Part shown: one piece after another, positions 19,915 through 20,693 of the stretch
Numbering within the stretch: the first letter of the stretch is position 1
How the letters are laid out: each line of letters opens with the position of its first letter
DNA from: Escherichia coli
Lineage (GTDB): Bacteria; Pseudomonadota; Gammaproteobacteria; Enterobacterales; Enterobacteriaceae
Assembly: GCF_044324875.1 (NCBI RefSeq)
Contig: NZ_CP172185.1
Length of the DNA: 64,000 nt
Direction: 5' to 3' (one strand)
The notes under the pieces: model-generated
What the model saw: only the letters and a program-made list of their open reading frames with translations
Told to the model about the DNA's origin: nothing
Database searches by the model: none
Program-made: the position numbers and the translations under genes

Positions 19915-20401
19915 TCTGTTATTCTCCTGTATTATTACTTCACCAGCCAGAACGGTAGTGCGGAGCAAAAATACAGTGATAAGAATCCTCTTTTATTAAT
20001 TTAATAATGCCAGGAATATTATTGTGTATAATATGCGCCCTCAATTTAAGCAGCAGAAAACGACTGGGATTAAAATCCTTAAATTATAAACATATACAAC
20101 TTTGTAAAGGTGGTTATAATAAACCTGATTACTTTAACGTCTGTATACCTGCACTGCTGATATCACAAAACAATAAAAATCCTGGGTAATATCTCTGATG
20201 ATTGAATGAGAAATTCACGATGTCTGGTGAGAATTCTGTTCAAAACGAGGAATGCAGACGTACACGTGGCAGGTATGGACTTCCACCGATTTAACTTTTT
20301 TCCTTCCTTGTATTTACACATCACACATTTTGCGCTACAAAAATTTCACGTGGCACGCACCACGTGATCCGTAGAAAAGCCTCTTGTTACGAATTTCGTA
20401 A

Positions 20402-20432
20402 ACCGCACGTCTGTCTGGTCGTGCGGATTTTT
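20402..20432 (+). terminator. Intrinsic terminator (GC hairpin accgcacg...cgtgcgg followed by T-run)
   Basis: Inverted repeat plus run of six T on the plus strand in the Tfa-adhesin intergenic region. Confidence 0.5.
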
Positions 20433-20653
20433 TATCCGTCAACTTCACATGAAACCCGCCAGATCACTGTTTCCGGATTCAGACATCAGGCATATTATCA
20501 TCCACAATGTCGTGAACAAGATCACGCTTTTGCAATTCCTTTATTGATCGAAAGCAGTTAATCACGGAAATTAATTACTGGAGTGAAAGCATTTGCTATG
20601 TAAACATTCCCAGAAGACATCTTCATGTTGAATATTATTCCTTATTGACTACA

Positions 20654-20686
20654 CCCCTCTGACAGAATTTTCAGAGGGGTTTTTTT
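20654..20686 (+). terminator. Intrinsic terminator (cccctctga-cagaatt-tcagagggg then T7)
   Basis: Perfect 9-bp stem and seven T on the plus strand, ending 8 bp before the tfa stop. Confidence 0.6.
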
Positions 20687-20693
20687 ATCAGTT

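Follow-up and report, generated by a model that had tools for sequence, protein, structure and literature searches.

Which transcripts arise in the gene-free interval between the late genes of a prophage and the adhesin gene carried at their end, and where do they stop? This question is raised by a stretch of 64,000 nucleotides from Escherichia coli (contig NZ_CP172185.1; the whole stretch is hereafter called the window), in which a gene-free spacer of 779 bp (19915-20693) has a tail-fibre-assembly gene of the DUF4376 type (tfa) on one side and the gene of a YadA/Eib-like adhesin on the other. Both flanking genes are on the minus strand and RefSeq holds no annotation inside the spacer. Eib-type adhesins contribute to serum resistance, immunoglobulin binding and chain-like adherence in Shiga toxin-producing (STEC), avian pathogenic (APEC) and extraintestinal pathogenic E. 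coli (ExPEC). Their expression is strongly conditional, and we know of no controlling cis-acting element that has been mapped. An earlier note on this DNA had pointed to two plus-strand terminators and a CACGTG-type palindrome in 350 bp of the spacer and had suggested a short plus-strand transcript, either a small RNA (sRNA) or the product of a moron (a promoter-gene-terminator unit between phage genes in the sense of Juhala/Hendrix). Here, we describe a strand-specific terminator architecture that recurs in the long spacers upstream of Eib-type adhesins and is kept while the sequence is replaced, and we propose that it confines antisense transcription originating in the spacer itself.

Terminators of the spacer and of related loci

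The hairpins on which the argument turns are the following:

20653-20686, plus strand: T2, a strong intrinsic terminator with a 10-bp stem (20653-20662/20671-20680, 6 G-C pairs) and an 8-nt loop
20403-20433, plus strand: T1, an intrinsic terminator with the stem CCGCACG (20403-20409)/CGTGCGG (20420-20426), 6 G-C of 7 bp
20339-20367, minus strand: H1, an inverted repeat and terminator-like hairpin with repeat arms within 20346-20367
20387-20401: a small A/U-rich hairpin, TTACGAATTTCGTAA, between H1 and T1, predicted in the folds of both strands

By geometry, folding energy and U-tails, the two plus-strand terminators of the earlier note are real. T2 folds with -18.0 kcal/mol (z -4.6; plus strand), a value equalled by 0 of 200 shuffles, and its T run up to 20686 provides a tail of U6-7 in plus-strand RNA. 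It has no U-tract on the minus strand and is a strictly plus-strand signal, with 13 nt between the end of the hairpin and the tfa stop codon. T1 (-14.3 kcal/mol, z -2.9; plus strand) combines a 10-nt loop with a tail of A plus U6 at 20427-20433; on the minus strand only UUUAC follows the stem, making it weak in that direction. H1 is a perfect inverted repeat with arms of 8 bp, TCACGTGG (20346-20353) and CCACGTGA (20360-20367), which are 6 nt apart. This repeat is present as previously described. Rather than as a palindrome, it is better understood as a minus-strand terminator with a 9-bp stem and a 4-nt loop followed by AAUUUUUG (AAU5), whereas the plus strand has no U-tract; its folds reach -14.2 kcal/mol on the minus strand (z -3.2) and -12.7 kcal/mol on the plus strand (z -2.8). 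A G+C-rich hairpin with an immediate U-rich tract, the mark of intrinsic terminators, is thus found in T2, in T1 and, on the minus strand, in H1. From these features T1 and T2 are predicted to release RNA polymerase on the plus strand.

A scan for hairpins with a T-tail on both strands of the full window gave 661 candidates, with T2 at rank 6, H1 at rank 39 and T1 at rank 43. Runs of at least five T occur in 14 of the top 45 candidates window-wide, three of which fall in the 350 bp considered here; the clustering of such sites in this interval exceeds chance. In the consensus scan H1 appears among the terminator-like sites of the minus strand (tail AATTTTTGTA) and T2 is listed too; T1 is passed over because a loop of 10 nt is above the limit of the scan. 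H1 and T1 constitute a back-to-back pair, 35 nt apart.

The evidence that carries our argument comes from related loci, which were found by tblastn with the tfa protein: P-EibA, P-EibC, P-EibD and P-EibE of strain ECOR-9, the inducible phages PhiR5_2 (PV340546), PhiR12_5 and PhiR12_3, phiSTEC1589-Stx1c and GER2. All share the order of tfa (56-63% identical to that of the window), a spacer of 360-800 bp and a YadA-like adhesin, and an ORF-156-like gene lies downstream of the adhesin in those loci where this was compared. The adhesin of the window is 40% identical to EibD over the C-terminal 225 amino acids, and the small helix-turn-helix protein encoded downstream of it is 22% identical to ORF-156D of P-EibD (E 2e-4). 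The window thus displays all elements of an eib-type cassette, namely a tfa-like ORF-191, a spacer, an adhesin with YadA anchor and an ORF-156-like gene, placed where a lambdoid late operon ends, and judging from these similarities the related loci are diverged versions of the same locus. The related spacers do not align with that of the window, the spacer of strain Ch1 excepted (see below), and mostly not with each other. In spite of this, every related locus examined has an antisense hairpin with a run of U5-7 that ends 7-14 nt from the tfa stop, across five spacer types:

Window and Ch1, next to the tfa stop, antisense: T2
Type A (P-EibA, PhiR5_2, PhiR12_5), next to the tfa stop, antisense: AGGGGCTGGAGCGCCCCT then CT7
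Type CDE (P-EibC/D/E, PhiR12_3), next to the tfa stop, antisense: ATGAGGGAAAGAAATGTTTCCCCCAT then AT5
Type phiSTEC1589, next to the tfa stop, antisense: ATGGGGGAGGTGATGGTCCCCCAT then CT5
Type GER2, next to the tfa stop, antisense: GGGGGTGAGGCATCACCCCC then GT7

The antisense orientation that the earlier note had remarked upon in the window is therefore the same in all these tfa-adhesin loci, although their spacers are unrelated. On the sense strand each tfa-proximal site reads as 5-7 A and then a hairpin that lacks a U-tract behind it, and hence the selected direction is the antisense one. The background chance of such a site is about 0.006 per given 8-nt window on a given strand. A second antisense terminator is situated further inside the spacer in type A (136 nt), in phiSTEC1589 (262 nt) and in the window (267 nt; T1), and PhiR5_2 has a third one owing to the tandem duplication of a unit of ~170 nt, the duplicates sharing a box of ~20 nt that immediately precedes the hairpin. 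On the sense strand these spacers have few terminators, the sole good one being H1. In lambda and phiP27, where tfa is not followed by an adhesin, there is no antisense terminator after tfa. A further antisense terminator was observed in P-EibD (L041, 3257-3275), GGGGAGCATGTTGCTCCCC then T7, located 6 nt after the stop of orf-60D and resembling the GGGGAGC...CTCCCC terminators of the type A spacers.

A terminator that is kept at one position while the sequence around it is replaced is under selection, and a terminator is useful only where polymerase arrives. On these grounds we infer that the spacer is very probably transcribed on the plus strand and that this transcription ends short of the tail-fibre genes.

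Variation among copies of the element agrees with the maintenance of T2 as a hairpin. The alignment comprises 37 copies from RefSeq, 26 metagenome contigs and one IMG/VR contig, which represent two or three near-identical haplotypes. T2 occurs in 8 sequence variants, all of which have the hairpin (-13.4 to -18.0 kcal/mol) and U6-7; in 17 copies the outer pair has been lost on both arms jointly (C20654A with loss of G20679). Two segments of the spacer around T2 stand out:

20594-20650: variable block upstream of T2, in which 17 of 37 copies have numerous substitutions and lack 26 nt (20594-20619)
20526-20693: Module A, the stretch of the spacer next to tfa, T2 included, which travels with tfa and not with the leader of this adhesin

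Module A is delimited by strain Ch1 (L037), which has the same tfa and helix-turn-helix gene as the window combined with a different adhesin and an unrelated leader of 265 bp. Homology between Ch1 and the window starts at 20526-20529 and continues through T2 into tfa, with 20526-20693 identical, and there is no significant similarity to the left of this junction. T2 and ~125 bp upstream of it consequently belong to the tfa side, and H1 and T1 to the leader of this adhesin. In another locus (L039) an IS600 element (2737-4001) has inserted into the spacer at window position ~20528-20530 with a 3-bp target duplication (CTT), and the Ch1-type cassette joins Module A within 3 bp of this IS600 site; this point may be a hot spot of recombination or insertion. 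By this comparison T1 and T2 are not parts of one inherited unit. Since they lie in independently recombining modules, they need not bound one transcript. The core of the earlier note's suggestion, plus-strand transcription in the spacer, is supported by the position-conserved antisense terminators. The moron at this site is the adhesin cassette itself and not the interval of 250 nt.

Ch1 also displays Rfam matches to IsrK (72.7 bits) and C4 antisense RNA (78.9 bits) at the prophage end near ompW (L037, 946-1147), directly upstream of ORF6N-domain and DinI-like genes, all oriented towards the adhesin cassette. In the window this region seems to have been replaced or interrupted by insertion sequences.

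Source and role of the plus-strand RNA

On balance we lean towards the view that the terminators confine antisense transcription born in the spacer, giving RNAs with or without a function of their own. H1, T1 and T2 would act as Rho-independent terminators that partition transcription between tfa and the Eib-like adhesin moron. T2 and T1 would stop plus-strand RNA, which is antisense to all neighbours, short of the tail-fibre genes, and H1 would stop minus-strand read-through from tfa ~300 bp ahead of the adhesin promoter. The spacer itself would be the likeliest source of the plus-strand RNA. The A+T-rich region of the adhesin promoter may fire divergently, with transcripts that stop at T1, or a weak promoter within the spacer, near 20470-20498, may give transcripts that stop at T2; short non-coding RNAs would result in both cases. 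Candidate elements were sought on both strands, in every allele and every spacer type, with a consensus scan and a sigma-70 matrix:

20470-20498, plus strand: candidate promoter TTTCCG-17-TATTAT, 7.9 bits; start ~20505, ~180 nt before the end of T2
20519 to 20492, minus strand: candidate promoter TTGTTC-16-TGaTAATAT, 6.3 bits; start ~20485, ~145 nt before the end of H1
20093-20120, plus strand: candidate promoter TATACA-16-TATAAT, 7.0-7.3 bits; ~310 nt to T1, divergent from the adhesin promoter
20016-20044, minus strand: best candidate for the adhesin promoter, TTGAGG-17-TAATAT, the top matrix match in every allele, not above shuffles
20060-20165: two-allele mosaic block, with alleles ~60-70% identical and flanks near-identical, just upstream of the predicted adhesin promoter

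The -10 boxes of the first two candidates overlap across the strands, and this geometry, together with the motifs, weakly suggests a bidirectional promoter at 20470-20519. The -35 element of the candidate at 20093-20120 is not retained in the other allele of the mosaic block; a switch of allele at 20060-20165 could alter adhesin regulation between strains. Further weak plus-strand elements (start ~20642) would yield RNAs of ~45 nt, barely more than the T2 hairpin.

Several points weigh against our proposal. The plus-strand RNA is deduced from DNA sequence. No promoter on either strand rises above shuffled sequence (mean best shuffle 9.9 +/- 1.2 bits), and no promoter element is common across the spacer types. 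The second antisense terminator and the sense terminator are missing from types Ch1, CDE and GER2, and the layout with three hairpins is hence not universal. Furthermore, the invariance of H1 and T1 is uninformative. Only ~8 variable sites are present in 20347-20593 among the 37 copies, H1 is invariant in all copies and T1 in 36 of 37 (the exception, L038, has G20409A, which breaks the innermost stem pair), but the flanking coding sequence varies as little, and the cause is the youth of the element, not selection on the hairpins. The copies are near-identical, and other species have no homologue. Finally, transcription antiterminated by Q or N ignores intrinsic terminators, and H1 therefore cannot insulate the adhesin in lytic growth.

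An alternative that we regard as possible, though rather unlikely, is the one already raised in the earlier note, that of one or more dedicated sRNA genes on the plus strand. The RNAs would measure ~180 nt (start ~20505) or ~45 nt (start ~20642) when ending at T2 and ~90-310 nt when ending at T1, with a minus-strand mirror form of ~145 nt ending at H1, and would act in trans via Hfq or in cis on the adhesin leader. Terminators with U6-7 suit Hfq binding, and the tandem unit of PhiR5_2 with its shared box has more the look of a gene than of a redundant terminator. In the T2 unit a conserved 3' hairpin follows a 5' region that varies, a pattern like that described for prophage anti-sRNAs. Moreover, H1 and T1 make a convergent terminator pair, convergent sRNA pairs are documented at lambdoid moron sites (PMC4104026), and the overlapping -10 boxes at 20492-20498 have the geometry of a bidirectional promoter. 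Several results stand against dedicated genes. Promoter prediction found nothing above shuffles between T1 and T2 (best 7.9 bits), and the search against known RNA families (Rfam 15; E-value mode on 18000-23000 and on six related loci, gathering score over the whole window) returned no family in this or the related spacers at E<=1 and none at gathering score. The weak matches, VrrA with 25.8 bits (threshold 50) and Atu_C9 with 14.9 bits (threshold 40), cover terminators only. In addition, the sequence from T1 to T2 shows no unusual degree of structure (z -1.2, T2 excluded), the putative RNA would contain the 26-nt indel and the heavy substitution of the variable block, and RNAduplex with shuffles detected no significant pairing of the candidate RNAs to the translation-initiation regions of the adhesin and the regulator, a test that is crude at these lengths.

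One may extend this idea to a doubtful but more general one, to which we give less credence: all prophage tfa plus Eib-like adhesin loci would carry an unnoticed class of antisense sRNA genes abutting the tfa stop, very short (~45-60 nt) or in tandem duplicate, with a strong terminator at the end of every unit. T2 and T1 would then be the 3' ends of two such genes, which, by analogy with the AsxR/AgvB anti-sRNAs of the pR' moron site, might tune adhesin expression or sponge host sRNAs in lysogens.

That the plus-strand terminators halt long-range antisense transcription entering from the prophage end is improbable in our view. Such transcription could come from a plus-strand ant/dinI-like module, from host read-in at attR or, in the circular phage, from the early leftward operon across attP. 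In its favour, the rightward genes are all on the minus strand, which places the leftward operon on the plus strand and would let it enter at the adhesin end after circularisation; related prophages have plus-strand ORF6N and DinI-like genes that point at the cassette, and the extra terminator of P-EibD gives the impression that antisense terminators cap every sense-strand module of these phages. Yet, the RNA would first need to traverse >2 kb antisense to the adhesin and regulator genes, intrinsic terminators do not stop N-antiterminated transcription, lambda has no such terminator after tfa, and the tandem duplication of whole units is left unexplained.

Still less probable is a role of the hairpins as cis-regulatory parts of a long adhesin leader, with H1 as attenuator or as operator of a dimeric regulator and the CACGTG repeats as protein sites, for instance for the eib activators IbrAB or the helix-turn-helix protein of the cassette. 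Eib expression in single copy reportedly needs IbrAB. H1 is a perfect 8+8 palindrome, and CACGTGGCA has two exact copies in the whole window, both in the spacer: one within H1 (20347-20355) and one 84 bp away at 20263-20271 (plus strand). A minus-strand terminator ~300 bp upstream of the promoter could gate read-through. Regulation of Eib by agitation, oxygen, pH and temperature has been described (PMC4352079 among other work), without cis elements mapped and without mention of the spacer. On the other hand, 168 bp of eibG upstream region sufficed for complementation of an eibG deletion from a plasmid (preprint; eibG may have a leader of another type), and the hairpin interval lies >400 bp upstream of the adhesin start in the window. 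An attenuator was rejected: H1 and T1 both form when the minus strand is folded, in the minimum-energy as in the centroid structure, and no antiterminator or other structure competes with H1. The second CACGTG site reads CATGTG in half of the homologues (C20265T, CATGTGGCA at 20263-20271) and is not strictly conserved, and other spacer types have no analogue of H1. A parS-like reading of the CACGTG sites was also rejected, the best match of 11/16 being at chance level (an estimated ~0.45 such matches are expected in the spacer).

We consider it very improbable that the hairpins are relics without present role, such as terminators of decayed genes: the G+C content of the spacer core (20250-20500) is 46-50% against 28-36% nearer the adhesin, as if of different origin, and the low diversity points to a young element, but no decayed gene or repeat was found (distant-mode blastn against phages and plasmids gave nothing beyond the cassette and tblastn against phages gave nothing), and six further loci whose spacers are unrelated have an antisense terminator in the corresponding place, which would not be expected of relics.

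Coding functions of the spacer were rejected as well. Six-frame translation, the codon positions of substitutions, indels and tblastn with the most protein-like frame gave no support for a protein: the small open reading frames (ORFs) have poor or no ribosome-binding sites, no synonymous excess and 1-nt indels, and none is annotated in RefSeq. The spacer is non-coding. For a type I toxin-antitoxin system, the spacer ORFs (18-65 amino acids) are not hydrophobic, lack a Shine-Dalgarno sequence and have substitutions in non-synonymous proportions along with 1-nt indels.

The recurrent architecture makes the spacer a concrete place to seek antisense or small RNAs controlling a phage-borne virulence factor. 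Should dedicated sRNAs be produced, a second prophage sRNA moron site, at the end of the late operon, would stand beside the known one. Should the hairpins be insulators only, the case would be an ordinary one, still giving a useful annotation of the ends of late-operon and antisense transcription and of the cassette junction at 20526-20529.

The adhesin cassette and its prophage

The genes around the spacer are:

20694-21269, minus strand: tfa, tail-fibre-assembly-like (Pfam DUF4376, E 2e-20; its RefSeq homologues are DUF4376 proteins)
18373-19914, minus strand: adhesin, a YadA-like trimeric autotransporter of the Eib group (Pfam YadA_anchor, E 3.5e-16)
17856-18311, minus strand: small helix-turn-helix protein of 151 amino acids with Pfam Sigma70_r4_2 as sole domain

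The tfa gene is the final gene of the late operon, with its stop codon at 20694-20696. The adhesin starts with ATG at 19914 behind an AGGAG ribosome-binding site, and its protein is an exact match to WP_395762498.1 (E. coli); no sequence match to the solved EibD fragment was obtained at E<=0.001. The adhesin is the cargo of the moron at this site. The gene with the sigma-70 region-4 helix-turn-helix always follows downstream of the adhesin. In a word-indexed protein search all relatives of its product were at least 94% identical, and almost all came from E. coli; the product may be a regulator of the cassette that evolves fast. Just downstream of this gene, a 31-codon ORF on the minus strand (17649-17744) encodes a very hydrophobic peptide, MKITKAAFIFALSVWSVAVICLLLFVLVVLG, and a second short hydrophobic ORF is found nearer the stop codon. 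Both may encode small membrane proteins.

Spacer and adhesin occur together in 371 of 5,426 complete E. coli genomes, with 88-98% identity and a maximum of 6 copies in one genome; APEC BEN2908 and UPEC F11 are among the strains with this type of spacer. For most copies the surroundings are not an intact prophage but an island in which homology ends ~80 bp into tfa at a transposase fragment. Elsewhere, the spacer-adhesin element was found on one plasmid, one IMG/VR contig and 26 metagenome contigs. It is absent at the DNA level from the phage collection and also from the representative genomes of every other species, where a lone exact-pattern match (Streptomyces) is due to chance. Among eight loci (L001-L008) the part encoding the signal peptide (19815-19850) and the spacer are conserved and the passenger domains vary, giving adhesin genes of 1167-1548 bp; this looks like swapping of passenger domains between conserved flanks. 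One metagenome contig (SKEX01002394.1, L026) aligns poorly at 19900-20050 and has a gap at ~20250-20350, which may reflect a rearrangement of its spacer or an insertion.

The prophage is lambdoid, with its genes at 20.7-63 kb and its rightward and late genes on the minus strand, among them a cII-like gene, replication genes, terminase, J, a tail fibre with collagen repeats and tfa. Two phage tRNA genes, tRNA-Arg(TCT) and tRNA-Met/Ile(CAT), lie on the minus strand at 52978-53131, upstream of the lysis and late region, which is the usual position in Stx-like lambdoid phages. Three intact-looking insertion sequences are situated within or beside the prophage:

16332-17492: IS256/Mutator-family element adjoining the adhesin cassette
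22844-24415: IS66-family transposase just upstream of the tail-fibre gene
57999-59800: IS21-like pair (transposase and DnaC-like helper) in the early region

The prophage is probably defective. To its left, beyond the IS256-family element, follows an island with aerobactin and sit iron-uptake genes (390-14011), interrupted by ISL3-family transposase fragments. It contains two ABC-3 permeases (sitC/sitD-like), a TonB-dependent receptor, an MFS transporter and an aerobactin set of two IucA/IucC-family genes, an acetyltransferase and a lysine monooxygenase.

Comparison with known systems

The hairpins resemble the intrinsic terminators of convergent transcription units in their G+C-rich stems, loops of 4-10 nt and 3' runs of 5-7 U, and also in their arrangement: H1 and T1 stand back to back and T2 directly borders on the 3' end of an opposite-strand gene. 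In contrast to such units, no convergent gene is annotated or detectable here, all neighbours being on the minus strand, which makes the RNA terminated on the plus strand non-coding, and T2 is strictly unidirectional instead of symmetric and bidirectional.

Like phage morons, the cassette is located at the end of the late operon, has an A+T-richer upstream region with its own candidate promoter and also occurs outside prophages as a unit. Unlike in a typical moron, the hairpins are found upstream of the adhesin gene, and two are in the wrong orientation to serve as the moron's own terminator.

The eib loci of ECOR-9 (AF151091, AF151674-AF151676; Sandt and Hill) have the same order of orf-191 (tfa-like), spacer, eib and orf-156, with identities of 40% for the adhesin C-terminus, 59% for tfa and 22% for the downstream ORF. 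Their spacers do not align with that of the window, which has the H1/T1 pair in addition. The antisense hairpin and U-run abutting the tfa stop are nevertheless shared, even though the GenBank records annotate stem-loops on the sense strand only (~100 nt upstream of eib and after eib) and none in antisense.

The closest precedent is offered by the lambdoid prophages of E. coli O157, in which convergent sRNA pairs and anti-sRNAs (AsxR, AgvB and the EcOnc RNAs) are produced at the moron site of pR' (Tree et al., 2014; PMC4104026). The window differs in that its site follows tfa at the end of the late operon and theirs follows pR'/Q, and in that the window is known from DNA alone. It has neither the ~42-nt 3' region shared by the AsxR/AgvB group nor a location downstream of pR', and no sequence or Rfam match links the two (the presence of AsxR/AgvB models in Rfam being unverified). 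The likeness is one of architecture only. In both cases a lambdoid moron site carries small terminator-bearing units 3' of and antisense to the preceding gene, with convergent terminator pairs and a conserved 3' hairpin behind a variable 5' part.

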